Shown piece after piece: positions 38,727 through 54,331 of a stretch of DNA of 64,000 bases. The translations under genes were made by a program, and so were the position numbers. The notes beneath the pieces are model-generated. The model ran no database searches and was not told where the DNA came from. It saw nothing but the letters and a program-made list of their open reading frames with translations. This DNA is from an uncultured Oscillospiraceae bacterium (lineage in GTDB: Bacteria; Bacillota; Clostridia; Oscillospirales; Acutalibacteraceae): assembly GCA_902489595.1 (NCBI GenBank), contig CABUAS010000001.1:2166-66165 (forward strand), written 5' to 3'. Positions within the stretch are counted from its first letter, which is position 1. Each line of letters starts with the position of its first letter.

Positions 38727-39170
38727 TTACTCCATCTGTTTTCCCAAAAATGCCGCTGCAACCTGCACGAGTTTAATGTCGGTTTCATCGGGCAAAGTAT
38801 TAGGCTCTGTTTCCATAAGAGCCACTGCACCCGAAACATCACCGCCGTAGATAATCGGATACACAACGTTTGCCTTGCGGTCAAACCCCTCAATCGCATT
38901 CATTGACGGAACATCGCGTGTAGCGATGTGAATCTGCCTGTTTTCCATCAAATCTTCAAGATTTTTTGTAATTCTGCGCTCAAGAATTTCACGCTTACTG
39001 ATACCTGATGCGGCAATAACATGATCGTTATCCATAATTGCAATCGGCAGTCCGCCGCTTTTATGAAGCACCTCGGCATACTGATTGGCAAAATTTGAAA
39101 GTTCACCGATAGGTGAATATTTTTTAAAAATAACTTCGCCCTCTGAATCCGTAAAAATTTCCAGCGGGTC
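38727..39170 (-). pseudogene. spoVT: spoVT 3' segment (codons ~32-end, GAF-like C-terminal domain), detached from its 5' end
   Basis: DPLEIFTDSEGEVIFKKYSPIGELSNFANQYAE...VQVAAAFLGKQME is collinear with SpoVT after the GDPLEIF motif. It is read as the tail of the recombinase ORF. Confidence 0.9.
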
Positions 39171-40937
39171 GCCGCCACATATAACATTGACACCGAAAGC
39201 CTTGTCCCTTTGGTTTTTAACCGTTTGGACTATTGTGGCTGATAAGTTACCTTCGATGTCCCAATTAAAATTTACGACTTTACCTCTGTAACCTGCTTCT
39301 TCGAGTTGTTCATCGGTAAGCGTACCTGCTTCAAGCAACATAGCAATATCCGCTTTTAACTCTATGTCTATGTGCGGCTCTTCGCCGTCAAAGACCACTA
39401 TTCTATCAACAATAAGCGGTAGATCGCCCTTGTCGAGTTTATCCTTGTCGAGAATATCACGGAAAATTTGCAAAGCCGTTTTTGCGATACGGTTGACCTC
39501 TATGGTTGTGTTTCTGCGTTCAACCGTCATTTCAAGTTGCTTTTCAAGACCGTCAATTTTTTGCAAAAGCTCGGTTTCCATTTCCTCATAGGTTTCCTCT
39601 ATGATTTCACGGTTTACACCTTCCGCTTTCATTAACTCACGAATTTTCTGCTTTTGAGTAGCCTTGTAACTCTCCCTTGCCTTTGCTAAATCCACCTCTA
39701 AATTTGCGATAGTGGAAGCAGAGGTTTTCATCATTTGTGGCTCACTCTTAATGGCTTTTTCCAATTCAGCAATCATTTTTTCGGAGTTCATCATCACACG
39801 CTCAATATACTTTTTGAGCATCGTATCGAGCAAATCAATACGGGTATGGTGTGATGTGCAACCTTTAAGACCTCTCTTGTGGTACGTTCCACAAGTGTAG
39901 GCGGGTGCTAAATCGGGACGGCTCATAGAGAACATAGGACTACCGCAATCACCACAAAAAAGGAAACCCGAATAGGTAGTATCGTATTTCTTGACACCCC
40001 GATAATTCGATTTTGTCCGTGCTTTTAGGTGCTGTTGAGCCTTCATAAACTCTTTGACATCGACTATGGCAGGGTGATGATTTTCAAACACCTTGTGTTC
40101 GTCCTCGTCCAATTTTTTATCCGCACCATTGATATTTTTACGGGTATATTTGTGCTGACGGAGAGTGCCGATATAAAAATCATTCTGCAAAATACCGCTG
40201 ATTGACGGTATTGCCCATATAGGACTTGCTTTGATTTTTACCTCAACCTTGCCCTTGCTCTTTGCGGCTTCGGCTTCTTTGCGTTCCTTTTCCACCATAC
40301 GAGGTGTCGGGATATTTTTCTCGGTAAGGTAGTTTGCAATTTTCTTATAACCCCACCCCTCGTTGTATAGACGGAAAATCTCACGGACAACCACCGCCGC
40401 CTTTTCGTCAACCTCAAAAATCATATTTTTGGTATCAACAAAGTAATATCCGTAAGGCACGGCACAAATCCAATTCCCGTCATTTTGACGGCTCTCAACG
40501 ACCCTTTTTACCTTTTTGGAAGCATCGGTAACGGGCATTTCGTTGAGCAAAAAGCGTACTTGGATATTATTCCAATCATCATAGGTCGGATAGTCGATAC
40601 CGTCACCGATGGAAATAATACGCACCCCTGCATCTCGCAAATCTTCGAGTTCTACAAGACCTCTACTGTTACGGCGGGAAAAACGGGAAAAGTCTTTAAT
40701 GATAAGAATATCGTAATGCCCGTTCATCAAAAGTGGACGCATACGCTGATAATCTTCTCTCTGCTCAAAGGTGTAACCGCTTTTATCACGATCCTCGTAA
40801 TAGTCCACCTCTGCATCGGGAAATGTCTGCTTAATGTAAGTTTTTATAATTCTTCTTTGGTTTTCGATAGATGTATTATCTCTGTCTTTTTCAGTATCAA
40901 CAGAGATACGCATATATGCGGCAATCTTTTTCGCCAT
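38727..40937 (-). CDS. large serine recombinase (TnpX/SpoIVCA class); ORF continues in frame into the spoVT 3' segment (589 + 147 aa)
   Basis: Resolvase domain (AAYMRISVDT...RFSRR), recombinase domain, Zn-ribbon (CGDCGSPM...CGTY...C) and coiled coil. No stop codon before the junction at 39170. Confidence 0.9.
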   Translation of the reverse strand: MAKKIAAYMRISVDTEKDRDNTSIENQRRIIKTYIKQTFPDAEVDYYEDRDKSGYTFEQREDYQRMRPLLMNGHYDILIIKDFSRFSRRNSRGLVELEDLRDAGVRIISIGDGIDYPTYDDWNNIQVRFLLNEMPVTDASKKVKRVVESRQNDGNWICAVPYGYYFVDTKNMIFEVDEKAAVVVREIFRLYNEGWGYKKIANYLTEKNIPTPRMVEKERKEAEAAKSKGKVEVKIKASPIWAIPSISGILQNDFYIGTLRQHKYTRKNINGADKKLDEDEHKVFENHHPAIVDVKEFMKAQQHLKARTKSNYRGVKKYDTTYSGFLFCGDCGSPMFSMSRPDLAPAYTCGTYHKRGLKGCTSHHTRIDLLDTMLKKYIERVMMNSEKMIAELEKAIKSEPQMMKTSASTIANLEVDLAKARESYKATQKQKIRELMKAEGVNREIIEETYEEMETELLQKIDGLEKQLEMTVERRNTTIEVNRIAKTALQIFRDILDKDKLDKGDLPLIVDRIVVFDGEEPHIDIELKADIAMLLEAGTLTDEQLEEAGYRGKVVNFNWDIEGNLSATIVQTVKNQRDKAFGVNVICGGDPLEIFTDSEGEVIFKKYSPIGELSNFANQYAEVLHKSGGLPIAIMDNDHVIAASGISKREILERRITKNLEDLMENRQIHIATRDVPSMNAIEGFDRKANVVYPIIYGGDVSGAVALMETEPNTLPDETDIKLVQVAAAFLGKQME

Positions 40938-40986
40938 ATATTCACCACCAATGTTGTATTTTTATATACTCCTATTTACGAACAAC

Positions 40987-41015
40987 ATTGTAACATACCT
41001 TTCTACAAATTGCAA
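40987..41015 (-). promoter_or_regulatory. candidate sigma-A promoter of the recombinase gene (internal to the element)
   Basis: Minus strand TTGCAA, 17 nt, TACAAT, about 45 nt upstream of the recombinase ATG. Confidence 0.55.
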
Positions 41016-41095
41016 CACTTTTCGAGGAATTAGTTGATTTTGGAAGTCTTTTAATGTAATTATGGCAGAATAAACCTCTGCCATAGCAGAGATAA

Positions 41096-41344
41096 TTAAC
41101 TATCTCCGATTAGTCCTTGCTGAACGTTCTTGGCTGCAAGAACCTCTTTGTTGTGGAGCAACAACTCCTTTGTGAGTTCCACAATATCGCCTTTGCCGGA
41201 AAGGAATACGCACACCTTATACCCTTTGGCTTTCCAATTTCTATAATCGGGTTTTAAGGACTCTCGCAACGCTTTGTCCTCTCTTTCTTCCCGTGATAAC
41301 CAATAATATGCTATTTTGTTCTTGTCGCAGACTTCCAAAATCAT
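41096..41344 (-). CDS. hypothetical protein (82 aa)
   Basis: ORF with RBS GGAGGTG. No family recognised. Confidence 0.5.
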   Translation of the reverse strand: MILEVCDKNKIAYYWLSREEREDKALRESLKPDYRNWKAKGYKVCVFLSGKGDIVELTKELLLHNKEVLAAKNVQQGLIGDS

Positions 41345-41595
41345 TCGCTGACACCTCCGTTCATTCCATATTTTTCCTCGATTTTGTTGCGTCTATTCAG
41401 ATTGCTTTTTTACCCTCCGAAAAAGAAAATGGGTGTGCCTGACCTCAAGCGGCGGCTTCCAAACACCGCTTTGGTCTATATACTCTCTGTCTAAAGTAGT
41501 CCATAGAATTATTCTTTTTTCGGGTAGTAAGTTATTATCTTTAGTATTGTTTCCTGCTAAAAAGCCGCAGTCTTTAATGCGGAAAAACCGCACTC

Positions 41596-41949
41596 TTACT
41601 GTGTTTGGAACTTGTGGACGTAGAGCCGAGTCGGTCTGCCTTTGCCTTGCCGTTGTCGGCTGATGAGTCCGTACATTTCCAATTCTTTCAGCATTTTGGT
41701 GGCTTTATCGTGTCCGCAGGAAAGTGTTTCGCATATATCCTTTAGGGTGCAATACACGAACACATCGCCGTAGCGGTCAGTAAATCTATCCTTGTTTTTG
41801 GTGGAAAGGCTCATACGGTCAAGCAGTATTCCGTAGAGCAGGGCGGCATTTGCGGATAGCCCCGTATATGACGGGTGCGTTAGGATTGCTTTCGGAACTC
41901 TCACAAAAGCAAACGCTTCAGCTTCCCACCACTTGAATTTTTCGCCCAA
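41596..41949 (-). CDS. RepA_N-like winged-helix protein (replication initiator A N-terminal domain type)
   Basis: FVRVPKAILTHPSYTGLSANAALLYGILLDRMSLS...TLKDICETLSCGHDKATKMLKELE resembles the Firmicute RepA_N domain (from memory). Confidence 0.65.
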   Translation of the reverse strand: MGEKFKWWEAEAFAFVRVPKAILTHPSYTGLSANAALLYGILLDRMSLSTKNKDRFTDRYGDVFVYCTLKDICETLSCGHDKATKMLKELEMYGLISRQRQGKGRPTRLYVHKFQTQ

Positions 41950-42029
41950 GCGTTCTCACTCCTTTCGTGCGATTTTTTGTATTAAAAGGGGGCGGTTTTT
42001 GCCGTTTTCGTCCTCTGTAAGCGGCTTTT

Positions 42030-42278
42030 CTAAGGTGGGTGGTATGTTTCCCTTAACTTCCCGATATTCTGTTTTTTGCAACGATTTGGTGCTTTTTTAC
42101 GGGCATAATGCACCGCCCTTTTGCTTTCATATCGGCGGCACTCTATGATTTTCGCCCGAAAACTCTGTTTGCAATCACGGGTACAACTGCGGCATATTTC
42201 GTTGTAGGTGCGGCGGTGCGTTATCGGATGAATGAAGAACGCCCACTCTTGTTTTGCTTTCTTTGATAATCTCGGCAT
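42030..42278 (-). CDS. cysteine-rich VLP-type small protein
   Basis: Start moved to MPRLSKKAKQEW. The CRSCTRDCKQS...ECRRY motif is common in Firmicute mobile elements (from memory). Confidence 0.6.
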   Translation of the reverse strand: MPRLSKKAKQEWAFFIHPITHRRTYNEICRSCTRDCKQSFRAKIIECRRYESKRAVHYARKKAPNRCKKQNIGKLRETYHPP

Positions 42279-42419
42279 CGTAAAACTCCTTTCACTTATT
42301 TGGACAAAGGGGTGCATTTTGGACACCCATTTTGAATTTCTTTTATTTACCCCTTCACTTGTTCCTACGGACATTATCAGGGTGTCATAGAACTGTCATA
42401 ATCGTTTTGTTTTCCCTCA

Positions 42420-42800
42420 ATGAGTAGCCACCGAGAAGGGCAAAAATATAACCGTTTTCAAAAAATCTTTCTAATAAGTAGGCACCGAAAGCGGCAAAAA
42501 TTCAAAAGGATTTGAAAAAATATCTCTCTATTTGTTTGAAACGGGAGAGGAAAATATAAGGGTGTTTTTTGAAAAATCTCTCACATATTTGGAATTGCTA
42601 CCGCCGAATGATGCCCTGTTTGCATTAAATTTTTCTGCGGCTCTCACTTACCTGCCGCACGGTTTTGAAGAAAAAACGAAACAGTTTCTAATATGTAATT
42701 GGCGAATTTATTTAGCGTTTGGCAAAAATTTTTTGATCTTCCTACTTTTAATTGCTGAATTTTTTTAGCGTTTAGACACTCCGTTTAATAATTTATTGGG
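42420..42800. repeat. iteron-like direct repeats in an A/T-rich noncoding stretch (candidate origin/operator region)
   Basis: GTAGCCACCGAGAAGGGCAAAAAT (42423) matches GTAGGCACCGAAAGCGGCAAAAAT (42477). TTGAAAAAATATCTCTC matches TTGAAAAATCTCTCAC. GAATTTATTTAGCGTTTGG (42704-42722) matches GAATTTTTTTAGCGTTTAG (42756-42774). Confidence 0.4.
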
Positions 42801-42850
42801 AAATTTTTTGCTGAAAATAAAAAAGATTTCCGAAAAAATTTCTCGGAAGT

Positions 42851-43020
42851 CGAATGGAGAATGAGATGCACTATACCAGCAAGCATCGCCTTTTGTCACC
42901 CAAAGGTAGACCTGCCCGCCGACAAAGTATTGTCTTAGCGAGCAGACCGTTTTTACTCCTATCGGCTAAAAATGGTACTCGTTAGGGAAATTCCCTAAAA
43001 CCCTTTGCCGCCGCAGAGCA
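42851..43020 (-). ncRNA. candidate structured ncRNA, copy A (homologous to 53496-53722, opposite strand)
   Basis: Lies between two minus-strand terminators (43022-43062 and 42812-42850). It shares three blocks with copy B: TTAGGGAATTTCCCTAACGAG, GGTCTGCTCGCTAAGA and TTTGGGTGACAAAAGGCGATGCTTGCT. Confidence 0.35.
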
Positions 43021-43072
43021 TAAAAAAGACACCTATCAAAATTGATAAGTGTCTGTGTGCGGCGGTGCCGCC

Positions 43073-43783
43073 TTATTCAGTTTTGGTTTTGAGCCGACAC
43101 ACTCCGTCAGCTTCGTCCCGCCGCTTTAATTCGGCGGCAAGGGTATCCATCATCTTACGCTCAATGTGTTCCACGCTACCACGATTGAGGTCGTGCTGAT
43201 CGGCATACTTGCGTACCGATACCCCGTTTATGTAACGCTCGGTAAAATATTCTGCAAAAACTTTCATTACCGATTTTAAGCAGCCGTTTATAAAGCGGTA
43301 GTCCTCCATCATAACGGCATACTCATCTTTGCTAATGCCAATGTAACGGTTGTGTGCTTTGCAGAGTAAGTGCCTATCCCTATCTTCCGTATAGTGTTTG
43401 CAAAGATCCTTCGCATAATCATAATAGGTGGTGGTTGTTCGGAAACGGCGGCTGTAATAACTCTCTTTGTGTTCTTTTGGCTTGTTCGTGCGGCGAACAC
43501 CCTCGAAGCCATCTTCCTCTATATCGAGCCATAGCCAATTCGGTGCGTTCATTTGCGTTTGACGGGTAAAGCACCGCACCGTCTTTCCGTTATGCTTGAC
43601 CTTTGCATTAAAATCTTTCAAGGGCATTGTAACATACTGATTCTTGTCCTTGTAATCAACTGTATAAAAAATAACGGTGTCCTCTTGGCTTTCATAATCC
43701 TTTGCCGTTGTTACAACAAAGATGTGTTTGCCGTCATAACGCTTGTAATAACCGGCAAAGACACGCCTTTCTTTTTCAGCCAT
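43073..43783 (-). CDS. DNA-binding protein with sigma-70 region-4-like C-terminal HTH (N-terminus DUF1653-like)
   Basis: C-terminus ERYINGVSVRKYADQHDLNRGSVEHIERKMMDTLAAEL resembles a sigma region 4 HTH. The N-terminal assignment is from memory only. Confidence 0.55.
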   Translation of the reverse strand: MAEKERRVFAGYYKRYDGKHIFVVTTAKDYESQEDTVIFYTVDYKDKNQYVTMPLKDFNAKVKHNGKTVRCFTRQTQMNAPNWLWLDIEEDGFEGVRRTNKPKEHKESYYSRRFRTTTTYYDYAKDLCKHYTEDRDRHLLCKAHNRYIGISKDEYAVMMEDYRFINGCLKSVMKVFAEYFTERYINGVSVRKYADQHDLNRGSVEHIERKMMDTLAAELKRRDEADGVCRLKTKTE

Positions 43784-44034
43784 AGAACCGCCACCTTTCC
43801 GTTGAATTTATTTTATTATACACCTTTTTAAGCCGAAAAGAAAGGTCATAATTTTGAACAATTATAGCACAGTATAAAACAAATTGAGAATTAACGATTA
43901 GAATTAATGCCATCGTTAATTCTATCATCTTCACAATTAATTCTGAACTTTTTTTGAAACTTGCTTCCCAATATTGAAAATTCATTGATTTCGGGAAACA
44001 AATGTGGTATAATAACTTTGCGAGGTGATTTTCT

Positions 44035-45228
44035 ATGAAACTAATCGAAAGAAAACAATACTTAGATAAAATGATAGGCGTTATCGGAACTCCCGATATT
44101 AAAGTTTTAACAGGCGTGAGACGTTCGGGTAAATCAAAGTTACTCGAAGCCTTCAAAGCCTATGTGAAAAAGAATATTGTTGACGCTAATATTATTCATA
44201 TCAACTTTAACCTGTCTAAGTATGACAACCTTAAAGAATACAAAGCACTTAATGAATATATCGAAAACAACTATGTAGAAGGTAAGGAAAATTTCGTTTT
44301 AATTGACGAGATTCAAATGTGCGATAATTTTGAGCTGTGTATAAACAATCTCCACGCAACCGAGATGTACGATATTTATATCACGGGTTCTAACGCTTTT
44401 CTGCTCAGCTCGGATTTGGCAACATTGTTTACCGGCAGAACATTCGAAATCAAGGTGTATCCATTCTCCTTTGCCGAATATGTGCATTACTTCGGTCTAA
44501 CAGATAATTATACTGCTTTTGATAACTATATGCTTGAAGGCGGTATGTCCGGTTCTTATCTGTATAAAGAGCAAGAGGATAAATACGATTATATCGAAAC
44601 CGTCTTTGATACGTTGATCTTAAGAGATATACGACAAAAGTATAACATCAAAAATCCTGCTCTGATGGATCGTATTTCTCAATTCTTGATGGATAATGTG
44701 TCCAATTTGACCTCGGCAAGAAGCATTACGGACACGCTCACCTCGAACAAGGATAAAATTAATCATAAGACAGTTGGCAATTATCTGAGTTACCTTTGCA
44801 ACGCATTTGCCTTCTATAAGTTCCGCAGATACGATATTAAAGGCAAAAAATATCTTGCTTCCAACGATAAGTACTATTTAAGTGACCATACCTTCCGCTA
44901 TGCCAAGCTCGGTACAAAAAACTTAGATAACGGCAGAGTGATTGAAAATATCGTTGCAATGGAATTGCTTAGACGTGGCTATGAGGTTTATGTCGGTGTC
45001 TTATATAAAAAAGAGATTGATTTCGTAGCACTTAAGAGAAACGAGAAAATTTATATTCAGGTTTCGGACAATATTACCCATCCCGATACCTTTAGGCGAG
45101 AAGTTGATCCCCTGCTCAAAATCAAGGATGCCTATCCCAAGATGGTTATTGCACGAACAAGAAACCCCGAATATCAATACGAGGGCGTTAGAGTTGTTGA
45201 TGTGGCAGACTGGCTGCTAAACAAATAA
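44035..45228 (+). CDS. AAA+ ATPase (AAA_14 + DUF4143 type, COG1373-like) with PD-(D/E)xK-like C-terminus
   Basis: Walker A GVRRSGKS, Walker B VLIDEIQ. C-terminal EIDFVALKRNEKIYIQVS nuclease-like motif. Confidence 0.8.
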   Translation: MKLIERKQYLDKMIGVIGTPDIKVLTGVRRSGKSKLLEAFKAYVKKNIVDANIIHINFNLSKYDNLKEYKALNEYIENNYVEGKENFVLIDEIQMCDNFELCINNLHATEMYDIYITGSNAFLLSSDLATLFTGRTFEIKVYPFSFAEYVHYFGLTDNYTAFDNYMLEGGMSGSYLYKEQEDKYDYIETVFDTLILRDIRQKYNIKNPALMDRISQFLMDNVSNLTSARSITDTLTSNKDKINHKTVGNYLSYLCNAFAFYKFRRYDIKGKKYLASNDKYYLSDHTFRYAKLGTKNLDNGRVIENIVAMELLRRGYEVYVGVLYKKEIDFVALKRNEKIYIQVSDNITHPDTFRREVDPLLKIKDAYPKMVIARTRNPEYQYEGVRVVDVADWLLNK

Positions 45229-45370
45229 CAACTTCCCAAAAACGAAAAAAATATAAATTTGGATAACGTAATTATTATCCCGCATATATCTTTTTATCAA
45301 GCCGATATTCGTTGGCGCTATTGATATGAAAGTTGTAGATGCTTGTGGGGTAACAGCAAAAGGAGAAAAA

Positions 45371-45871
45371 ATGAAGTTAGCTGAAATATTAAATCTCATA
45401 GCAATTATTATAATTCCAATTATCGCCGTTATAGTTGGGCAGTGGTTACAAACTCGCTCTGAAAAACGAAAAGACAAAATGCACATATTTAAAACATTAA
45501 TGACTTCCCGTGTTTATGGGTGGACGCAAGAAAGTGTATATTGCTTAAATATAATCGACATAGTGTTTGCAGATGATAAGAAAGTACGCAATGCGTGGAA
45601 AGACTTGTACGATAAGTATTGTGTTCAAAATCCCGATGAATCGCAACTTAAAAAAATCGAGACTGCACAATACAAATTATTAGAGACTATGGCTGTTTCT
45701 TTAGGATATAAGGATAAGGTTACGTGGGAAACCATTCAAAATCCCTATATTCCCAAAGGAATGTTACGGCAGATCGAAGCTCAAAACCAATCTCAACAAG
45801 CGTATAACAATCTATTGCTAAATATGCAACAGATGATGCCGCAGAGTAAAAATCCGGAGGAAAAGAAATGA
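45371..45871 (+). CDS. small N-terminally membrane-anchored protein, translationally coupled to mod
   Basis: Start at [25 protein letters not shown] (RBS AAAGGAG). Its stop overlaps the mod ATG (ATGA). Confidence 0.6.
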
Positions 45872-47592
45872 GTACCAATATTTCAAAACAAAAGCGTGAG
45901 GATCTACTTACGAAAATAAAAGAAATTCGGACTTTTATTTCTGCTGCACCGCAGGACGAGAACACGGGCAATCTGCTCTCCTACCTTTCGGAGCTTGAAA
46001 AAGATGTGTGCGGTAAAAAATACGGTCTTGTGTTCGAGGAACACCGTGAGGAGATTGACGAGGTACTTGCCACCCACACGCCCGTCCTGACTGAGCAAAG
46101 CGACCTTTATATTGCCAACGGCGGCGAAATGAACTTTCTTATCGAGGGGGACAACCTCGCTTCGCTCAAATTGCTTGAAAAGACACACAAGGGTAAAATT
46201 GACCTCATTTACATAGATCCGCCATATAACACACAAAACGCTGATTTTATGTACGATGATACTTTTGTTGCGGCGGATGACTTATATAGACACAGTAAAT
46301 GGCTGTCTTTTATGAAAAAAAGATTACTGTTTTGTCGAAAATTATTAGCTGACAGAGGTTTTATTTTTATAAGCATTGATGACAACGAAGCACCGTACTT
46401 AAAGGCTCTCTGTGATGAAATTTTTGGTGAGGATAATTACGAAAAAACTGATTATATTCAAGTGCGTTATCCCGATAAAACATTGAAATCCGATATGCGT
46501 TACCACAAGGAAATTGAGCAAGTTTTAGTGTATCGAAAGTCATTTGCGGCAAAACCATATCTTAAACCACAAGAATATGATTACGATAAATTTATATATT
46601 CTATCAATGAATTATCCGCAGGCAAAGAGATCGAATTGGGCGGAAAAAAGGTGGTTGTCTTTGAGCAAGACGAATACGAAATCATACAACACGATACGGG
46701 CTTCAAAGATGGTCTAAAAGAAATATGGGCAACGGGTACAATTCTCAATGGTAATTCATCGGGTAGATTTTTCCGTGATTATCTTGATGGCAGAAAAGAT
46801 ATTGATGGATTAGGCATTCTTTATAAAGTTTATGGTATAGGCGATGACCAATACCCCTACCGATATTTTACCGGTCCTAAAAAGGCAAATGCAACAAAAG
46901 GAAAGTATTATCAAGGAGTTCCTTTCGAAAAGATGGCAGAGGGTGCGACAAAGGTAACTCCTATTCCTAATTTTTATGATATGGCAGGAGATTTTGGCAA
47001 CATTCGGCACGAGGGCGGTGTTCCTTTTAATAGCGGCAAAAAACCTGTTAAACTGATAAATATGTACCTTGATTATTTTGCAGAGAAAGATATTACGGTT
47101 CTTGACTTTTTCGCAGGTTCAGGCAGTACGGGACACGCTGTGTTACAACGCAATACCCTTGACGACGGAAATCGAAAATTCATTCTTTGCACAAATAACG
47201 AAAGCGGTATTTGTCGGGACATTACATATACCCGCATTAAAAACGTTTTGCAGAAAAATAGCGGCAGTCTAAAATATTACAAGGTGGACTATATCCCCGT
47301 GAGCGAGCGTATGTACTACGAATATGCGGACGAGCTGCTTTTGCATATCCGTGAACTCGTTGAGCTTGAAAACGGTGTAAATTTTACGGGCAATGCTGAA
47401 ATCGGTATTGTGCTGACGGAAGAAGAACTTGACGAATTTATAGCCAATGCAGACTCTTTTGCAAAATGCCGCAAACTGTATATGGGACACGACCTCTTAC
47501 CGAGCGAAGAACAAGAGCGTGTACTGAAGAAATACGGCATTGAAATCAGTATCATTCCCGACTACTACTATCGGGATTTGCAGGAGGGTTGA
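45868..47592 (+). CDS. mod: type III restriction-modification methyltransferase (Mod)
   Basis: DPPYN motif ([10 protein letters not shown]) and [13 protein letters not shown] motif in beta-class order, with a central variable region. Confidence 0.85.
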
Positions 47593-49781
47593 TTATGGTA
47601 TTAAAAGAATTTCAGTTAAATGCGGTAAAATCGTTGTTTGAAGCAATGGCAACCCCTGCTCGTGATATTATTCTCAAAAGCCCTACGGGTAGCGGTAAAA
47701 CCATTATTTTGACCTATTTTATGCACCAATACATACAGTCTTTCCCGAAAACCGTCTTTGTATGGCTTACGCCCGGCAAGGCAAACCTTGAAGAACAGAG
47801 CAAGGCGAAAATGGATAAGTATATCCACGCTTCGCAAACAAAACTGCTCTCCGATGTGATGACGGCGGGTTTTGAGGAAAATGACAGTTGCTTTATAAAT
47901 TGGGAGAAGCTGACGAAGAAAGGCAATAATGCCCTGAAAGACAGTGAACGCACCAACTTTTTAGAGCATATTCAACACGCCCTCAATGACGGTATTCGCT
48001 TTGTGATTATCGTGGACGAGAGCCACCAAAACAACACCATAAAAGCCGATGAAATTATACAGTATTTTCACACGGACAAGATTATCCGTTGCTCTGCTAC
48101 TCCGAAAGGCATAGCGAAAGCGGAAATCATTGATATTCCCGAAGAAGAGGTTATTGCGGCGGGACTTATCAAAAAAATGCTTGTTATTAACCAAGACTTT
48201 CCGCAGACCATTGAAACAGAAGATCAAACGGCTTTTCTGCTTGAAAAGGCACTCAAAAAGCAAAGGGAACTCCGTGCAGCATTTTTACAAAACGATACCG
48301 ATATTAACCCTTTAATCGTAATTCAGATCCCGAACAAATCTGAATCCTTGCAGGACGGTGTGGAACGTTACCTTGAAACGCAGGGGTTGACCTACGAGAA
48401 CGGACAACTTGCGGTATGGCTCTCCGACCAACACGAAAATTTGGAGGGTATTGACGAGCCTAACGCCACCACCTCTGCGGTCATTATAAAACAAGCGGTT
48501 GCTACGGGTTGGGATTGTCCGAGAGCACATATCCTTGTGAAACTTCGTGATAATATGGACGAAACCTTTGAGATACAAACGATAGGTCGTATTCGCCGTA
48601 TGCCCGAAGCAAAGCACTACCAAAGTGATCTGCTCGACAGTTGCTATCTTTACACCCTCGATGAAAAATTCACCGCAGGCGTAAAAATGGCTCTCGACAA
48701 GGGTGCATTAAACGCTTGTACTCTTTTTCTTAAAAACGAATATAAAGACATAACGCTCACAAGCGAACAGCGAACAATGGTTACAAGTACCCGTAATCCA
48801 CAAAAGGCATTACAAGCCATTGTTGCCTACGCTCAAAAGGAACTTGGCATTGGTACGGACAAGACGGAAAATCGGACACGTTTGCAGACCGCAGGCTATG
48901 AGTTGAGCGAAAACATTGTAAAGCATACCCTTTCGGGTGAAACTGCTACCCTTGATTTTGCGGCGGCAGATATGAACGCTATTGCGGTTACTGAAAAACT
49001 GAATACCCATACACACGGACGAGATTACCATCAAAAAGTCGGTAAAATCGGCTTGGAAATCGGTATGGAATATTCGTATATGAACACCATTATTCGCAAA
49101 CTGTTTGATAAAAACTTTAAGTACAGCCGTAAAATCCTTGCTTTAGAGCCGAGAGAGGTTTACGCCTTCGTAATAAACAACGCTGACAGACTTCGCCATT
49201 TAGTGCGTGAAGCTATGGCTTATGAATTGGCTCAAATGCAGTTTGAAATTCAGCAAAAATCTTATTACGAGTTCCGCATTCCGCAGTCTTGTTTATTCAC
49301 CTACAACGGCGAAGCGAAAACGCAGCTCGTAATGAAAAAGAACGTATATCAGAATTATCTCTCATCTGCCGCACCACGCTCTATGCCGGAGGTTAAATTT
49401 GAGAAATTCTGCGAGCGTTCCGACAGCATTGAATGGTGGTATAAAAACGGGGACAAGGGTAATGAGTATTTTTCTATCGTCTATACGGATAATTCCAATA
49501 GACAAAAGCTGTTCTACCCCGACTATATTATTTCCGTAAACGGCGAGTTGTGGATTATCGAAACAAAGGGCGGCTTTGACCGTAGCGGCAATAGCCAAGA
49601 TATAGACCTTTATACACCGAAGAAATTTGGTGTGTTAAAAGCCTATCTTGACGAACACGGATTAAAAGGCGGTATCGTCCGCAACGATGCAACAACCGAT
49701 GAACTGTGTATCTGTATGGATCACTATTCCGATGACATCGGTAGTGATGATTGGCAAGTGCTTGAAAGCGTATTGCCTTAA
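47589..49781 (+). CDS. res: type III restriction enzyme Res subunit (SF2 helicase + PD-(D/E)xK nuclease)
   Basis: [13 protein letters not shown] and QTIGRIRR helicase motifs. C-terminal [18 protein letters not shown] nuclease motif. Start overlaps the mod stop. Confidence 0.85.
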
Positions 49782-49822
49782 ATAGACGAAAACGGCAGGT
49801 GTCTATACTGCACCTGCCGTTA

Positions 49823-50080
49823 CTACTCTATTTCTTGGTCGAGGTTATCGAACTCTGCTGAGTCGAAAAAGTCTTTAAGGGACATATTAACCCCGTCACA
49901 AATGATTTTTATGGTTGCGATTTTAGGATTTTTGCTTTTGCCGTAAAGGATATTCTTTATCGAGGACGGCGGCAAGCCTGCGGCGGTTGCCAACGCATTT
50001 ATGGTTAAATCCTTTTCATCGCATATCTGCAATATTCTATTTTTAACCGCTTTGCATAGCGGTGAGCGTTGATCGGTCAT
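49823..50080 (-). CDS. XRE-family HTH transcriptional regulator
   Basis: Start at MTDQRSPL. HTH ICDEKDLTINALATAAGLPPSSIKNILYG. Confidence 0.8.
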   Translation of the reverse strand: MTDQRSPLCKAVKNRILQICDEKDLTINALATAAGLPPSSIKNILYGKSKNPKIATIKIICDGVNMSLKDFFDSAEFDNLDQEIE

Positions 50081-50194
50081 ACTGACTACCCCTATATACA
50101 CATTTTGCTATATATAGTGTAGTCAATTTTTTTGACGATTATAGGCTACGCATACTACTTTTAGGCTATACATAGCCTATTGGAGATGAACACA

Positions 50195-50626
50195 ATGGAG
50201 AAAACAGCGACTTTTATCGGACACGGCGAGTGTTGGGGTGTGGATAAAGAGAAAGTCCGTGCCGCCGCCGAAGAATTGATACAAAAAGGTGTCGAAACCT
50301 TCCTTTCGGGCGGTATGGGCGGCTTTGATTGGCTCGGTGCAAGGGTTGTATATGAGTTAAAGGAAAAGTACCCTCATATCAAAAATATCCTTGTAATTCC
50401 GTACCTTACCTTTAACGTGCGGAACAAAGACCTCTTTGACGAAATACTCTACCCCGATGGCTTTGAGAAATATCATTTTAAGGCGGCGATCCCGAAGCGT
50501 AACCGCTTTCTCGTAGATAACTCAAAATATGCAATCTGCTATGTTACACACGGCTGGGGCGGAGCTGCACAAACCTATGAATACGCAAAAAAGCACGGCT
50601 TGAACATTGTGGATATACGATGTTGA
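50195..50626 (+). CDS. SLOG-fold protein of the YpsA/DUF1273 type
   Basis: TFIGHG...FLSGGMGGFDWLGARVV...KRNRFLVDNS pattern resembles DUF1273 (from memory). Start chosen at MEKTATF with RBS GGAG. Confidence 0.6.
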   Translation: MEKTATFIGHGECWGVDKEKVRAAAEELIQKGVETFLSGGMGGFDWLGARVVYELKEKYPHIKNILVIPYLTFNVRNKDLFDEILYPDGFEKYHFKAAIPKRNRFLVDNSKYAICYVTHGWGGAAQTYEYAKKHGLNIVDIRC

Positions 50627-50809
50627 AAACAAGGTGATGTGTTTTGATTTAAGCACAGCCGAAATTTCTACCTATCGTCAAGCCAAAGACGAATAATTTT
50701 TAGCACTACCAAAGCGGCAGGGGGAGAAATCTCCCTGCCGTGATTTTCCTTATTTTGTGTTAAATTTTCAAAATCGAAACAAAATATAGTGTTTATTATG
50801 AAAAAAGAC

Positions 50810-50838
50810 TTGACTTTTTCGGTAAGATGGGTTATACT
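50810..50838 (+). promoter_or_regulatory. sigma-A promoter of the immR/immA-like operon
   Basis: TTGACT, 17 nt, TATACT, 50 nt upstream of the XRE gene. Confidence 0.6.
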
Positions 50839-50886
50839 TTTGGTAAGTCGGAGTAGAAGTTACTCCGCATATAAGGAGGAAATACT

Positions 50887-51198
50887 ATGAGTAAAGCATT
50901 TGGACAGAGGTTATTAAACCTATTACAAAAACAAGGTATAACACAAAAGGAGCTTGCTGATAGAATTAATACTACTGAAGCAACACTCTCTCGTTATGTT
51001 TCCGGCGACAGAGAGCCTAAAGCGGATATGCTCGCAAATATCGCTACTGCCCTTCACACTACATCGGATTATCTGCTCGGAATTGAGCCTGATGATTTTG
51101 ATTTCCCAAAGGTTGAGCGTCTATTAGCAAGAAACGCCGCAACAATGTCGGAAAAACAAAAACGAGCACTTATTTCTGCTTTGTTCGGGGAGGACTAA
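50887..51198 (+). CDS. XRE-family repressor (ImmR-like)
   Basis: HTH QKELADRINTTEATLSRYVSGDREP. Directly followed by the ImmA-type protease gene. Confidence 0.85.
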   Translation: MSKAFGQRLLNLLQKQGITQKELADRINTTEATLSRYVSGDREPKADMLANIATALHTTSDYLLGIEPDDFDFPKVERLLARNAATMSEKQKRALISALFGED

Positions 51199-51200
51199 TA

Positions 51201-51749
51201 TTGGCATTTAGATTATCAGACAAACGATGTGAAGAAATCAAAGAGATTGTAGTCAACACTTTCGAGGAACTTAATATCCGATGTATTCCTATAAGTGCCT
51301 TTGAAATGGCTACAAAACTCGGTGCGGTGGTTGTCCCTTATTCCTCAAAAACCGAAGAAACACGGCAACTTATGATGGAAAGAAGTGAGGACGGATTTAC
51401 CATCAAGAAAGATGGCGTGTGGTACATTTTTTATAATGATGCAAAGGGCTACGGACGTGTCAACAACACCCTCACCCACGAGTGTGGGCATATAGTGTTG
51501 GATCACACGGAAGAAAGCGAATTGGCAGAAGCCGAAGCGAAGTTTTTTGCAAAGTATGCTCTCGCACCGCCCGTCCTCATTCACAAATTAGAGTTAAAGG
51601 ATGCCTACGAGGTTTACGAGCATTTTGACATCAGCCTTGAAGCAGCAGGCTACGCCTTCTCTTACTATCGTAAATGGTTGACTTACGGCAATAAGGATTA
51701 TACCAATTACGAAATACGATTACTCCAGCTTTTTAAAGAAGCTGTGTAA
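51201..51749 (+). CDS. ImmA/IrrE-family metalloprotease (anti-repressor type)
   Basis: HExxH motif THECGHIVLDH. TTG start with RBS GGGGAGGA. Confidence 0.85.
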   Translation: MAFRLSDKRCEEIKEIVVNTFEELNIRCIPISAFEMATKLGAVVVPYSSKTEETRQLMMERSEDGFTIKKDGVWYIFYNDAKGYGRVNNTLTHECGHIVLDHTEESELAEAEAKFFAKYALAPPVLIHKLELKDAYEVYEHFDISLEAAGYAFSYYRKWLTYGNKDYTNYEIRLLQLFKEAV

Positions 51750-51781
51750 TAGTAAATTAAGAGAAAGGACGGTGATGTTAT

Positions 51782-51982
51782 ATGATTGTAAAGGTCGTAC
51801 AAATAGAAAAAGCACTCAGTAAATTGCGGCAACAATTTACAAAGTGCGTTCTCTTTGGATGCGAGCATCCGATATTCTGTTACAAGTATTATGCCACATC
51901 TGAAGAAAAATTGCAAGAACTATTGATGTTTTTACGAAAAAAATTTGCGATTTTCTGCAAAGAACAGATGAGGAGGGCATAA
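51782..51982 (+). CDS. hypothetical small protein (66 aa)
   Basis: ORF in operon context only. Confidence 0.35.
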   Translation: MIVKVVQIEKALSKLRQQFTKCVLFGCEHPIFCYKYYATSEEKLQELLMFLRKKFAIFCKEQMRRA

Positions 51983-51987
51983 TATAT

Positions 51988-52653
51988 ATGTCAAGAAAAA
52001 ATGGCACTCGAAGTGGGTGCAAAGATGTTTTTCACGCATTTTTAGTAAAAAATGCGAACTACGATAGTCCACTTGAAATCCCGTGCTTAAAAACAGAAAT
52101 GCGAAAGCCCAACAAGCTCATTGCGTTTTCAAAGGCGGTACACAGTACCGAATATGATGCTTGGGTGCATTTTTACGAGGACGATACCGCTTTTGAAAGA
52201 TTATGGAATAGACCTAACACCTATCTCCCTATCCTAAAGAAATTCAAAGGGGTTATATCTCCCGATTTTAGTGTCTATCGAGATATGCCGTTGGTAATGC
52301 AACAATGGAATATTTATCGTAGCCGTGCAATCGGTCATTGGTTGCAAGAAAACGGAATACCCGTCATCCCCAATATACGCTTTGGCGATGATCGTACATT
52401 TGAATTATCCTGTGCGGGTATAAAAAAGCACGGGGTAATCGCAGTAGGCTCTCACGGCTGCATAAGGCTACTGAGCGAACGCAAGTATTTTATAAACGGC
52501 TTAAAATATGTGGTTGACACATTAGAGCCAAAAACCATTGTGGTATATGGTGCTACACCGGACGAGGTTTTCGCACAGTATAAAGAAATGGGAATTGAAA
52601 TACTGCAATTCGACAGCGACTTTATGCAAAGTCGAAAGGCGGTGAGCGCTTAA
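51988..52653 (+). CDS. DUF4417-like protein
   Basis: The pattern VISPDFSVYRDMPLVMQQWNIYRSRAIGHWLQENGIPVIPN matches my recollection of DUF4417. RBS GAGGAGG. Confidence 0.55.
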   Translation: MSRKNGTRSGCKDVFHAFLVKNANYDSPLEIPCLKTEMRKPNKLIAFSKAVHSTEYDAWVHFYEDDTAFERLWNRPNTYLPILKKFKGVISPDFSVYRDMPLVMQQWNIYRSRAIGHWLQENGIPVIPNIRFGDDRTFELSCAGIKKHGVIAVGSHGCIRLLSERKYFINGLKYVVDTLEPKTIVVYGATPDEVFAQYKEMGIEILQFDSDFMQSRKAVSA

Positions 52654-53093
52654 TGGGTGCAGGCTTTCACGGTGGTTTTGGCGGCACTCACGGTGCAGGC
52701 GAAAACCACAAAGATTACATTGAAAATACTCTGCCCAAGAGTTCACCTATTAAAATTCCGTACTCTGCCACAGTAAAAGAAGAACAGAAAAACGGATACG
52801 ACCAAGTTAAATATACTTGGAAAAAGGGTGATTATTCTTATACAAGCCGTTGGCACACCCGCACACCTAATGCACCAAAAGAGCAAGGAAATTCGTGGGT
52901 TGTTGAGCGTAAAAAATCAGGTGTTGGTTACGGCAAAAATGCACGCCCAAAGCAAGAAGAAGTTTTGGTAGGAAAAAACAAGTGGATATCAAAGCAAGAT
53001 TGGAAAAATGCAATAATGGCACGTAAAAAAGGCACATTAACACAACAACAAAAGGAGTGGTTGGATAATGGACACTGGAAAGACAATAGATAA
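52653..53093 (+). CDS. basic, Gly-rich-N-terminus protein (toxin-like, unassigned)
   Basis: GAGFHGGFGGTHGAG then a K/R/W-rich domain (YTSRWHTRTPNAP). TAATG overlap with the upstream gene. Confidence 0.45.
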   Translation: MGAGFHGGFGGTHGAGENHKDYIENTLPKSSPIKIPYSATVKEEQKNGYDQVKYTWKKGDYSYTSRWHTRTPNAPKEQGNSWVVERKKSGVGYGKNARPKQEEVLVGKNKWISKQDWKNAIMARKKGTLTQQQKEWLDNGHWKDNR

Positions 53094-53451
53094 TTTCAAA
53101 TTCTATGAGGGATTTGAAGGTGAACCCGAAATTGTAATCAAAGCCGAAAACTCGGATATGCAAATCTTACATATATGGGATGGATACTTTGATGATATAT
53201 TGAGAGAACCCAAGCTTGACGGAAACGGGTGGCAAGGGTTTACAAGAGATTATCATCAATGCGAGGGTGCGTTCGGGGATGATTCCGAAGCAATCATAAC
53301 AGATATAAACGAATACCTCTCTGACCTAAAATCATACCAAAATCGTCATTTTGATTATGACGATACAAAAGAAGTGTATGATTTACTGTGTTCTTGGTTA
53401 GATAATGCAATAAAAAATGGGTTTGAAAGAATATCTATAAAAGTAGTCTAA
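53068..53451 (+). CDS. acidic small protein (immunity/antitoxin-like, unassigned)
   Basis: D/E-rich 127-aa ORF with RBS AAGGAG, overlapping the preceding gene by 26 nt. Confidence 0.45.
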   Translation: MDTGKTIDNFKFYEGFEGEPEIVIKAENSDMQILHIWDGYFDDILREPKLDGNGWQGFTRDYHQCEGAFGDDSEAIITDINEYLSDLKSYQNRHFDYDDTKEVYDLLCSWLDNAIKNGFERISIKVV

Positions 53452-53495
53452 TCTATTTCACGGCAGAGACTTGTTCTCTGCCGTGTTTTCATTTT

Positions 53496-53722
53496 GGCGG
53501 GTATTAGGGTGTTCCCTAACGAGTGGTATTTGGTAGTGTGACTACCCAAATACACTGCTCGCTAAGACGGGACGGCTTACGAGCAAAGCACCGTTTGTGG
53601 AAAACCTATCCACAAATGGTCTGCTCGCTAAGATAGTGCAGATTATTACCGCACGTGGCTTTTGGGAACAAAAGACGATGCTTGCTATGCTCATACCGCC
53701 AATGGCGGCAAAGCAAAAAAGA
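53496..53722 (+). ncRNA. candidate structured ncRNA, copy B
   Basis: Flanked by terminator hairpins (53460-53495 and 53723-53768). Internal hairpins TTAGGG-TGTT-CCCTAA, GGTAG-TGTGA-CTACC and CCGTTTGTGG...CCACAAATGG. The CTCGCTAAGA motif occurs twice. Confidence 0.35.
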
Positions 53723-53771
53723 AGGCACAACCAACGGATTTTCGTCCGAAGGCTGTGCCTTTTTCATTGTT

Positions 53772-53945
53772 CTATACGTATTTTACACGCACATTTTTGA
53801 GTTTTGACCGCATAATTTTTAGCAAAACTTCGTCAACGCCGTCCGTGTATTTACCCGCCGATATAAGCGCGTTTTTCTTTGCGATAAGGCTCTCAATTAT
53901 CAAATTTCTTTCTTCGGGGGTGATGTAAATGTAAAACTTTTTCAA
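53772..53945 (-). CDS. small ORF (57 aa, TTG start overlapping the tnpV stop)
   Basis: (M)KKFYIYITPEERNLIIESLIAKKNALISAGKYTDGVDEVLLKIM... found by hand translation. It is below the ORF-track cutoff and is followed by a hairpin terminator. Confidence 0.4.
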   Translation of the reverse strand: MKKFYIYITPEERNLIIESLIAKKNALISAGKYTDGVDEVLLKIMRSKLKNVRVKYV

Positions 53946-54310
53946 GCGTAAACCACCTCTGCGTTGACAATTTCGGTGGCTCGGTTACGGATATTGTTCA
54001 TCTTCTGCACCCACTCCATCGGTGCGGCGGCTTTCAATTTTTCCGTAACACCCTCGTTTTCAGCAAGGGATTTTACAATGTCCTCAAACATTCTCTCGGC
54101 TCGTTTGTCGAGATTGGAAAGGTGGCTTGTCAATTTGCAACTTGTCAGCAGATTGATGTAAAACACCTTCCTGTGCTGCTTAATGTAGCGTAGATGCCGC
54201 TGTCCCCATACCCCTATTTCCGTTTCTTCTTCGGTGGGCAAAACGAGGTTGGGTAGGTAGTAATCGCCCTGCTTTGTGTAAGTGCCGCCCATTTTTTCGT
54301 ACTGTGTCAT
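53942..54310 (-). CDS. tnpV: TnpV-like protein (Tn4451/Tn4453 family accessory protein)
   Basis: MTQYEKMGGTYTKQGDYYLPNLVLPTEEETEIGVWGQRHLRYIK...WVQKMNNIRNRATEIV matches the TnpV pattern. RBS GGAGG. Confidence 0.8.
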   Translation of the reverse strand: MTQYEKMGGTYTKQGDYYLPNLVLPTEEETEIGVWGQRHLRYIKQHRKVFYINLLTSCKLTSHLSNLDKRAERMFEDIVKSLAENEGVTEKLKAAAPMEWVQKMNNIRNRATEIVNAEVVYA

Positions 54311-54331
54311 TTTTTCTGACCTCCGTATAAT

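Follow-up and report, generated by a model that had tools for sequence, protein, structure and literature searches.

The 34-bp stretch at the recombinase-side junction is very probably the attR site of a 15.2-kb large serine recombinase (LSR) element residing in the sporulation gene spoVT, with a 50-bp attP and strand exchange at a GA dinucleotide. An earlier interpretation of the window (the whole 64-kb stretch of DNA analysed here), made from its letters without database searches and called below the sequence-only reading, had proposed an LSR attP at the joined element ends, and this proposal is now backed by exact attP and attB sequences in public contigs, by a second lineage and by the LSR domains of the encoded protein. 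Each of the four sites exists as a real sequence: attL and attR lie in the window, attP in a metagenome contig (L027) and attB in three contigs of the same strain (L111, L109 and L108). The sum of attL and attR equals that of attP and attB, with no base gained or lost, in these contigs and with the attB of Dorea longicatena (L112-L114). At the level of sequence, the case is made by four sites with exactly the predicted junctions, by the GA exchange point and by the constraint on one arm as DNA. As recombinase sites go, it is well supported but of a known and fairly ordinary kind.

Read on the minus strand, the sequence of the recombinase-side junction (attR) is GGTGTCAATGTTATATGTGGCGGC-GA-CCCGCTGG and that of the far junction (attL) is AGGGT-GA-CCCGTTACATACATCATTGACACC; both strings are present in the window where the sequence-only reading had placed them, and GACCCG is indeed common to the two. 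The element-internal 24-nt arms are inverted repeats that match at 19 of 24 positions, with perfect outer 10 nt, and our recomputation returned the same values as those first counted. When a 2-nt centre was slid along the reconstructed joint, GA scored 19 and every other position 11 or less. None of 200,000 random pairs of 24-mers drawn from the window reached 19/24 (the highest was 17), and the symmetry of the arms is far beyond chance. The weaker symmetry that had been claimed for the reconstructed attB was also recovered, at 10/24, which is far below the value of attP. The sequence GGTGTCAATG occurs exactly twice in the window, once at each element end. The coordinates of the sites and genes are collected in Table 1.

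Table 1 Features of the integrated element and of the interrupted spoVT gene (window coordinates)
Feature	Position	Strand	Remarks
Crossover dinucleotide GA at attR (recombinase-side junction)	39169..39170	-	Narrowed by the four-site sets of two species
Crossover dinucleotide GA at attL (far junction)	54414..54415	-	
Element arm P (GGTGTCAATGTTATATGTGGCGGC), attP left half	39171..39194	-	Also codes for recombinase residues GVNVICGG
Element arm P' (CCCGTTACATACATCATTGACACC), attP right half	54390..54413	-	
Host arm B' (CCCGCTGGAAATTTTTACGGATTC), attB right half	39145..39168	-	Within spoVT
Host arm B (CGTTCATTCAGAATTAAAGAGGGT), attB left half	54416..54439	-	Within spoVT
Integrated element	39171..54413	.	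15,243 bp between the GA copies; 15,245 bp with one GA
LSR ORF running in frame across attR into the spoVT 3' part	38727..40937	-	
spoVT 5' part, codons 1-31	54416..54508	-	Translation; MazE/AbrB-type domain
spoVT 3' part, remainder of codon 32 to stop	38727..39168	-	SpoVT_C, E = 4.5e-39
Tail ORF, arm P' with downstream codons and stop (LHTSLTPYEKFCYAMLQFAERCIGK, then stop)	54332..54413	-	
tnpV-family gene	53942..54310	-	PF14198 TnpV, E = 5.8e-47
RepA_N-family replication-initiator-like gene	41596..41949	-	PF06970, E = 3.7e-19

The exact 50-bp attP was found in a metagenome contig of ENA sample ERZ27236846 (L027), in which it links both ends of the element; the excision joint had been predicted, and it maps within the predicted core. 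This contig matches the window at 44037-39165 and at 54415-54237, with GACCCG shared by the two matches, and arm P' follows directly after arm P and GA. The 616-aa recombinase ORF of the contig (P0023) has the predicted C-terminus, and is identical to the predicted excised form save for one N-terminal substitution, K4N. L027 was the one contig found with the circle joint: a scan of JGI metagenomes for GGTGTCAATG-N30-CATTGACACC yielded four hairpins, all unrelated, and no second attP, all 26 matches of the half-site pattern in the IMG/VR viral contigs were to unrelated sequences (the element is not in that collection), and the exact excised-form recombinases of the window and of the Dorea contig L100 were not found by exact look-up in the protein collection. 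The protein P0248 (tail DPLHIDTA), considered as a second attP joint, was rejected, because contigs L097 and L098 reveal insertion at a secondary site. A tandem copy of the element could in principle produce the same joint as that seen in L027.

The empty site is present in the three same-strain contigs, which carry the exact 82-nt predicted attB with its halves B and B' contiguous; the flanks in L111 are 100% and 99.96% identical to those of the window. The repaired spoVT foreseen in the sequence-only reading is therefore an existing gene, and the protein obtained by rejoining its two parts equals a SpoVT protein of public assemblies (P0348), residue for residue.

In addition, a related element in Dorea longicatena, with a recombinase gene 78% identical at the nucleotide level, has the same site closure. 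One contig (L100) carries both attL and attR, the exact predicted attB is present in three empty-site contigs, and the symmetry of the rebuilt attP, counted from the sequences, is also 19/24. Third codon positions of the recombinase genes of the two lineages are 51% identical. The last 37 nt, which contain arm P, are the only identical run of at least 25 nt between them, and the final 12 wobble positions are all identical against this background of 51%; arm P' retains 22 of its 24 positions. The arm in the recombinase gene is thus constrained as DNA, beyond coding needs. This L100 comparison is the only unbiased test of arm conservation, because most junctions came from a genome scan with a pattern in which most arm positions were fixed, so that the conservation seen there is partly by construction.

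The comparison between sites also narrows the point of exchange. Identity between sites is limited to GACCCG in this strain, to GGCGA in D. longicatena and to GGCGGCGAC at a site outside spoVT (L048/L056), and GA is the sole overlap of these shared cores. Immediately 5' of GA, the sites of this strain have T, the host-specific base, in attL and attB, and C, the element-specific base, in attR and attP. In D. longicatena, the base 3' of GA is T (host-specific) in attB and attR and C (element-specific) in attL, which places the exchange 5' of that base. The four-site sets of the two species, taken together, therefore put the crossover at GA, where the sequence-only reading had set it. The alternative that exchange takes place at another dinucleotide of GACCCG (AC, CC or CG), with GA as a coincidental centre of symmetry, is consistent with this window alone, in which the six shared bases are indistinguishable, and with the MAG CAZJVB01, whose attL and attR share both GA and CCG and which we rejected as stand-alone proof of GA for that reason. 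We nevertheless regard it as very improbable, in view of the GA-T and GA-C trinucleotides of the Dorea sites, the end of identity after the shared core in L048/L056, the single centre of the palindrome, and the D or E codons of the secondary junctions, in which the third base varies.

GA is the centre in all 13 attR junctions of the spoVT type, in 36 of the 37 attL junctions in spoVT (rearranged and indel copies left out; L037 reads AA) and in eight of the nine secondary junction types, whose next codon is GA-N (D or E). AA also stands at the attR centre of L028, a variant copy in a GH10-like gene; the uninterrupted GH10-like target also has AA, and this pseudo-site copies 6 nt and 8 nt flanking the centre. 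Judged from these junctions, GA is not invariant as the centre. It can be argued from the GH10-like site, where pseudo-site and junction both read AA, that any shared centre suffices in an LSR attP as described here, with the arms choosing the site and GA merely reflecting the spoVT codon; against the prevalence of GA in all three junction classes, we give this proposal, which amounts to a refined version of the main explanation, hardly any probability. For the AA copy of L028, a matching AA variant of attP is indistinguishable from tolerance of a G:T mismatch.

Most homologues with a junction (117 of 129) sit in spoVT, and the nine other junction types are rare. Recombinases that are identical or nearly so over the queried 591 residues occur in spoVT genes differing in sequence and length, in many MAGs, and also at the nine other junction types, which argues for recent, repeated integration. 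The recombinase occurs widely among Clostridia of the ruminant and human gut. These data bear on the possibility that the palindrome is a by-product of coding or of a hairpin, that misassembly or a tandem duplication produced the joint in L027, and that the element is a fixed, non-excising fossil. A single joint contig was found, one arm is coding sequence, and the copies of the L036 group look rearranged and have no GA, all of which would suit such a scenario. Against it, a 6-bp repeat cannot mislead an assembly at k = 141 (a value that we take from the contig name, k141_86419), the wobble positions of the arm are frozen well past coding needs, the same recombinases are found in differing spoVT genes and at other junctions, and exact empty sites exist in the same strain, so that we consider it extremely unlikely.

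The limits of the element are given by its flanks, which are contiguous in the empty-site contigs, and by its ends, which are joined in L027. It interrupts spoVT at codon 32 (GAC), split after GA. The attP lies inside the recombinase ORF, and through integration the recombinase therefore becomes fused to the C-terminal domain of SpoVT. The product of the ORF across attR is a 736-aa LSR::SpoVT_C fusion with the Pfam domains Resolvase (PF00239), Recombinase (PF07508), Zn_ribbon_recom (PF13408) and SpoVT_C; its recombinase-specific part corresponds to 39171-40937, and about 200 extra recombinase residues lie past the zinc-ribbon domain, its last Pfam match. More than 100 near-identical fusions are present in public assemblies, and the SpoVT C-terminal domain is in frame in all hosts examined. 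The tail ORF completes the 616-aa recombinase ORF in the circle and, when the element is integrated, ends the truncated spoVT 5' part; its frame, its length and one conserved motif are kept across lineages.

When the element is integrated, the spoVT promoter has the tnpV-family gene as the nearest element gene downstream; in the circle, this gene immediately follows the recombinase ORF. Its position is identical in L100, L102 and L027. Between tnpV and the spoVT 5' part, the minus strand showed no terminator-like site, and promoter and terminator scans at both junctions gave counts at the level of shuffled controls. A module of the RepA_N gene, an 82-aa ORF and the recombinase is conserved in L027, L028, L097 and L099-L102.

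From these sites the following recombination cycle can be proposed. The attP is the 50-bp pseudo-palindrome built from both element ends, with 24-nt arms around GA, and attB the spoVT sequence AAAGAGGGT-GA-CCCGCTGG. We infer the protein-DNA contacts, the cleavage chemistry, and the timing and cell type of excision. By analogy with LSR biochemistry, recombinase dimers would sit on the arms and recognise the perfect outer 10 nt through the zinc-ribbon domain, and 2-nt staggered cuts at GA would be followed by rotation and religation. Recombination of attL with attR would then yield intact spoVT and a circle with attP, and the reverse reaction, between attP and attB, would lead to integration.

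Several known systems resemble this one. In Tn4451/Tn4453 (TnpX) and Tn5397 (TndX), an LSR inserts and excises a circular element, as here. The GA recombination that the sequence-only reading invoked for Tn4451 is documented, including the 2-bp exchange, and Tn5397 also has a central GA; in these elements, as in ours, exchange takes place between identical GA dinucleotides at joint and target (PMC5704250, PMC4430133). As in the Tn4451/Tn4453 family, a TnpV-family gene is present here, some secondary sites are used here too, and Tn5397 likewise favours a site inside a conserved protein-coding domain. However, our recombinase appears only distantly related to TnpX, and the likeness to Tn4451 is functional rather than one of close homology, because the catalytic domain of TnpX (PDB 2mhc), the only domain compared, aligns at only 28 bits (E = 1.5e-05); this match ranks below two other solved recombinase domains. 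Plasmid records were searched for an annotated Tn4451 and for close relatives of the recombinase, and gave only matches below 31% identity. Whereas Tn4451/Tn4453 have a mobilisation module (MobV relaxase TnpZ and oriT), no relaxase or Mob gene was found among the element ORFs scanned with Pfam or NCBIfam; five of the 20 ORFs scanned against Pfam had no match, which leaves room for a novel relaxase. The low target specificity of Tn4451/Tn4453, which use many GA sites, also differs from the strong preference seen here for spoVT codon 32. The TnpV-linked relatives L103 and L104 were considered as having the same layout and rejected: the 3' end of their recombinase gene overlaps tnpV, which leaves no att site between the two genes, whereas here attP lies within the 3' end of the recombinase ORF.

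A second group for comparison is that of elements that interrupt sporulation genes, namely skin (SpoIVCA, in sigK), SPbeta (SprA/SprB, in spsM), gin (GirC/GirX, in gerE) and skinCd. As here, an LSR gene at the element edge lies beside the 3' fragment of the split sporulation gene (PMC4191935, PMC5595907). Precise excision of skin-like elements restores the ORF, in line with the exact empty site and intact SpoVT protein described above (PMC4191935, PMC5595907, bioRxiv 10.1101/2022.02.25.481979), and their att sites similarly have inverted repeats together with a short direct repeat. Their excision is timed by sporulation and confined to the terminally differentiated mother cell. SpoVT belongs to the forespore line in Bacillus subtilis and Clostridioides difficile, and in this respect the pattern does not fit the published skin-like elements that we found, whose targets are mother-cell genes. 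Within the library of papers that we could search, none was found to report an interruption of spoVT.

The architecture of the sites resembles that described for the integrase of the Listeria phage A118 family (LI), with an attP of about 50 bp that is pseudo-palindromic, half-sites of about 25 bp and a central dinucleotide; its zinc-ribbon domain reads the outer half-site, at a motif at bp 16-24, and its attB is less symmetric, with this motif 5 bp nearer the centre (PMC3783163). Our 50-bp attP with its perfect outer 10 nt and our attB resemble this arrangement, in unrelated sequences. A shift of the attP motif by +5 was the best of 15 in both host half-sites, but the signal is modest and the margin small (6.4 versus 5.5 in one half-site and 5.6 versus 4.8 in the other, on a scale of 15). 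The Int protein of myxophage Mx8 is a tyrosine recombinase. In Mx8 intP, attP is also inside the integrase coding sequence, which receives a new 3' end on integration (PMC6070905); our enzyme, in contrast, is a serine recombinase, with a folded host domain, that of the SpoVT C-terminus, encoded at the new 3' end of its gene.

A more speculative reading, which we consider unlikely, is that the element reversibly switches a sporulation gene of the forespore (the germline) and senses its own integration state. The integrated copy would make the recombinase::SpoVT_C fusion and have tnpV behind the forespore-line spoVT promoter, and the circle, which carries the RepA_N gene, would make the 616-aa recombinase, ending in a conserved tail of its own, with tnpV directly behind. 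The two isoforms, or TnpV driven by the spoVT promoter, might then bias the direction of the reaction, so that the forespore could excise the element at the time it requires spoVT; the circle could then be maintained and insert itself again once the spore has germinated. If true, this mode of switching would be new with respect to skin, SPbeta and gin, whose excision is restricted to the mother cell.

All four att sites were obtained from public data, and the crossover was fixed to 2 bp without experiment. A defined pair of a 50-bp attP and an attB of about 40 bp may serve as a reagent for genome engineering, and it may help with the annotation of the numerous fusion proteins that are mis-called "SpoVT C-terminal domain". 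A larger biological question is why the element targets a forespore-line regulator, which C. difficile requires for heat-resistant spores, and a second is whether it serves any function that the recombinase exchanges its C-terminus when the element integrates. The exact sites make both questions directly testable.

The sequence-only reading had described a 50-bp imperfect palindrome centred on GA, formed by joining the two ends of the element, and had predicted it to be the attP of a large serine recombinase (LSR) with crossover at GA. Both junction strings that it gave are present in the window, GACCCG is common to attR (the recombinase-side junction) and attL (the far junction), and the two arms match as inverted repeats at 19 of 24 positions, with the outer 10 nt perfect, which confirms the palindrome. 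With a 2-nt centre placed at each position of the reconstructed joint in turn, GA scored 19 and no other position more than 11; among 200,000 pairs of 24-mers drawn at random from the window, not one reached 19 matches. The reconstructed attB (the empty spoVT site) is far less symmetric than attP, as had also been stated, because its host-derived arms match at 10 of 24 positions. At attR there is also a small GC-rich hairpin (TGGCGG/CCGCTG; 39162-39177, minus strand) followed, three bases further on, by a host T run (GAAATTTTTA), which was flagged as terminator-like by the scan; it lies inside the fusion ORF and may be due to chance.

Features of the element in the window, with the junctions of the Dorea longicatena copy (contig L100)
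Feature	Coordinates	Strand	Remarks
Recombinase fusion ORF	38727-40937	minus	Resolvase, Recombinase, Zn_ribbon_recom, then SpoVT_C domains
attR junction, GGTGTCAATGTTATATGTGGCGGC-GA-CCCGCTGG	GA at 39169-39170	minus	read from window
Element-internal arms	39171-39194 and 54390-54413		inverted repeats
TnpV-family gene	53942-54310	minus	far end of element; PF14198, E = 5.8e-47
Native tail of recombinase, 25 codons	54332-54413	minus	completes recombinase ORF in circle
attL junction, AGGGT-GA-CCCGTTACATACATCATTGACACC	GA at 54414-54415	minus	read from window
spoVT 5' part, codons 1-31	54416-54508	minus	then 25 element codons and stop
L100 attL, ...GAAGGC-GA-CCCACTACATACATCATTGACACC
L100 attR, GGTGTCAATGTTATATGTGGCGGC-GA-TCCGCTGG...

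When the recombinase was used as query, the matches included more than 100 fusions of the LSR to the SpoVT C-terminal domain (LSR::SpoVT_C) with few or no differences from it in the recombinase part, as well as a 616-aa form (P0023) whose C-terminal end, GGDPLHTSLTPYEKFCYAMLQFAERCIGK, is the one predicted for the ORF read over the reconstructed joint. The public contig that encodes P0023 (L027; ENA ERZ27236846, 5,046 bp) holds the exact 50-bp GGTGTCAATGTTATATGTGGCGGCGACCCGTTACATACATCATTGACACC, linking both element ends as predicted for attP. It matches the window at 44037-39165 with 98.7% identity and then at 54415-54237 with 100%, the two matches overlapping by six bases, GACCCG. Judged from these matches, L027 spans the junction at which the excised circle is closed. 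L027 is the only circle-joint contig found, and when JGI metagenomes were scanned for the outer repeats with attP spacing, the only matches were unrelated hairpins, with no further attP.

The predicted attB was also recovered, as the exact 82-nt empty site, in three public contigs (L111, L109 and L108). L111 matches the window flanks at 56168-54410 (100%) and 39170-36901 (99.96%), again with an overlap of GACCCG, and the SpoVT obtained from the joined parts is identical, residue for residue, to P0348 from public assemblies. In another empty-site contig, L107, the 3,099 nt of the left flank are identical to the window save for one base directly 5' of GA (L107 3093, window 54416), which is C, versus T in the window. 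This C, also found in L110, is the base in the element's own arm and in attP, and could be either a synonymous CpG polymorphism (GGC/GGT) or a recombination footprint.

The 5' and 3' parts of spoVT sit at opposite ends of the element, so the gene is divided by 15.2 kb, with the insertion point at codon 32 (GA|C). The LSR frame, with no stop of its own ahead of the junction, continues across attR into the 3' part of spoVT, giving a 736-aa fusion in the integrated state; gene callers and NCBI label such fusions as SpoVT C-terminal domain proteins. In every host examined, integration replaces the native tail of the recombinase with the SpoVT C-terminal domain. The tail keeps its frame, length and LTPxxxFCxAxxxxxxR pattern across diverged lineages, and since this conserved segment completes the ORF in the circle, attP lies inside the recombinase gene. 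Mx8 provides a precedent for an attP within the integrase gene; the Mx8 integrase is a tyrosine recombinase.

Dorea longicatena, which is common in the human gut, carries a diverged lineage of the element, whose recombinase (P0109) has 90% protein and 78% DNA identity to that of the window. The P0109 contig, L100, holds the whole element of 8.2 kb, laid out as in the window (spoVT 5' part, tnpV, cargo, RepA_N, 82-aa ORF, LSR::SpoVT_C). The rebuilt attP again matches at 19/24 positions (manual count from the sequences), the protein predicted after repair is the usual SpoVT of D. longicatena, and the exact predicted 82-nt attB occurs in three Dorea contigs (L112-L114). Intact Dorea SpoVT is indexed in 41,876 collection blocks and the occupied form in 240, which makes the element a rare accessory insertion in this species. 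The host of the window belongs to a Clostridia MAG lineage from the ruminant gut, for which depositors have used the label Acutalibacteraceae or Eubacterium sp.

In the window's strain the identity shared by the junctions is GACCCG, and immediately 5' of GA, attL and attB have the host base T, while attR and attP have the element base C. The shared run in Dorea is GGCGA, and there attB and attR have the host base T immediately 3' of GA, while attL has the element base C. At a non-spoVT site of one MAG (L048/L056) the run is GGCGGCGAC, after which identity stops. All three runs have only one dinucleotide in common, GA, and the palindrome is centred on it as well. C precedes GA in 13 of 13 spoVT-type attR junctions in a genome scan, and a different host wobble base precedes GA in 10 of 36 GA-centred spoVT attL junctions (manual count). 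At the protein level, eight of nine secondary junction types continue with D or E, residues encoded by GA-N, in which the third base varies. These sequence comparisons support the reading of the site as an LSR attP with GA crossover.

Contig L028 carries a variant copy (94.6% nucleotide identity in its longest match) that interrupts a GH10-like xylanase gene at AACGAGGGT-AA-CCCGCTGG; the attR centre of this copy is AA, not GA (L028 6102-6160). The uninterrupted gene reads AACGAGGGT-AA-CCCGCTGGTTAATTTG (L105/L106 around 3290-3330), a site that copies the 6 nt and 8 nt flanking the spoVT-site centre, with AA as central dinucleotide. Either attP carries AA in that lineage or a G:T mismatch was tolerated; the insertion is a natural experiment on the central dinucleotide. 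Five MAGs (L036 4380-4480, also L043, L050, L060 and L069) share an extra ~62 nt between spoVT and the far arm, with a hairpin (GGTGTCC-ACC-GGACACC) and with AC instead of GA at the inner edge of the arm; these copies are probably rearranged or immobilised, or the remnant of a second element. A degenerate sequence resembling the far arm, CCCGTCACACATGGGAACCATACATAGTCACACC, directly follows the recombinase-side arm and GA in L031 (minus strand, from position 500), and may be left over from a tandem or decayed element. There are at least nine insertion junction types outside spoVT (L048/L056, L046, L097/L098; proteins P0241-P0251); several secondary right half-sites resemble, by eye, the spoVT site (T-rich positions 12-16, A17/C18), and the L046 site is at a terminator-like hairpin.

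The recombinase genes of the window and L100 are 78.4% identical overall and 50.8% at third codon positions. Their last 37 nt, arm included, are the only identical run of at least 25 nt in 1,767 nt, and the final 12 wobble positions are all identical (probability ~3e-4 given the background rate); in the far arm, 22/24 positions agree. This unbiased comparison indicates that the recombinase-side arm is constrained as DNA, whereas the 62-locus genome scan is no evidence of arm conservation, because its search pattern fixed most arm positions. The identical block runs 13 nt past the 24-nt arm into the recombinase gene (39195-39207), so the functional attP may be longer than 50 bp on that side. 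In the solved LI integrase-attP complex, attP is pseudo-palindromic with 25-bp half-sites, and the zinc-ribbon domain lies on bp 16-24, the same motif being 5 bp nearer the centre in attB (PMC3783163). In the present element, the position of the LI zinc-ribbon motif is taken by the perfect outer 10 nt, and when the outer attP arm was compared with the host half-sites, +5 was the best of 15 shifts on each side independently, by a small margin.

Tn4451 exchange occurs between identical 2-bp sequences, with the target listed as "numerous sites (GA)", TnpX has no need for an RDF, and TndX of Tn5397 always requires the central GA (PMC5704250, PMC4430133), in agreement with the earlier statement that Tn4451 recombines at GA. 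The TnpV gene strengthens this link. In contrast, the TnpX catalytic domain aligns to this recombinase at only 28 bits, no relaxase was detected in the element, there is a strong preference for a single target rather than numerous GA sites, and the TnpV-linked relatives examined have no att site between recombinase and tnpV, because these two genes overlap. For these reasons, the element works like Tn4451 at the crossover, yet is not a member of that family.

The truncated spoVT 5' ORF and tnpV have the same orientation, with 21 nt between the stop of the former and the start of the latter, and integration puts tnpV directly behind the spoVT promoter. The scan gave no terminator-like site between the spoVT 5' part and tnpV, and integrated tnpV could be transcribed from this forespore-line promoter. 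In the excised circle tnpV comes directly after the recombinase ORF, and TnpV is a possible candidate for a directionality or timing factor. The element also encodes a RepA_N family protein, HTH regulators and an ImmA/IrrE-like peptidase, together with a Type III restriction-modification pair (Mod/Res) and a PDC-S01 candidate defence gene; these last, with DUF6680, occupy the cargo region at 44035-49781. The Dorea copies (L099-L102) carry a PLD-helicase, an Eco57I-type methyltransferase and an SLFN/AlbA-type ATPase, with deletion variants. Across the window and L099-L102 the cargo is defence-like and differs among copies, whereas the ends and the RepA_N/82-aa ORF/recombinase module are conserved.

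SPbeta is excised only from the mother-cell genome (PMC4191935). The published intervening elements that we found target mother-cell genes, whereas the target here is spoVT, a forespore-line gene, and our literature search found no report of an element interrupting spoVT. The site is an LSR attP with GA crossover, of a well-known kind, here documented unusually fully from public sequence, and the target and ORF arrangement of the element merit experimental follow-up.
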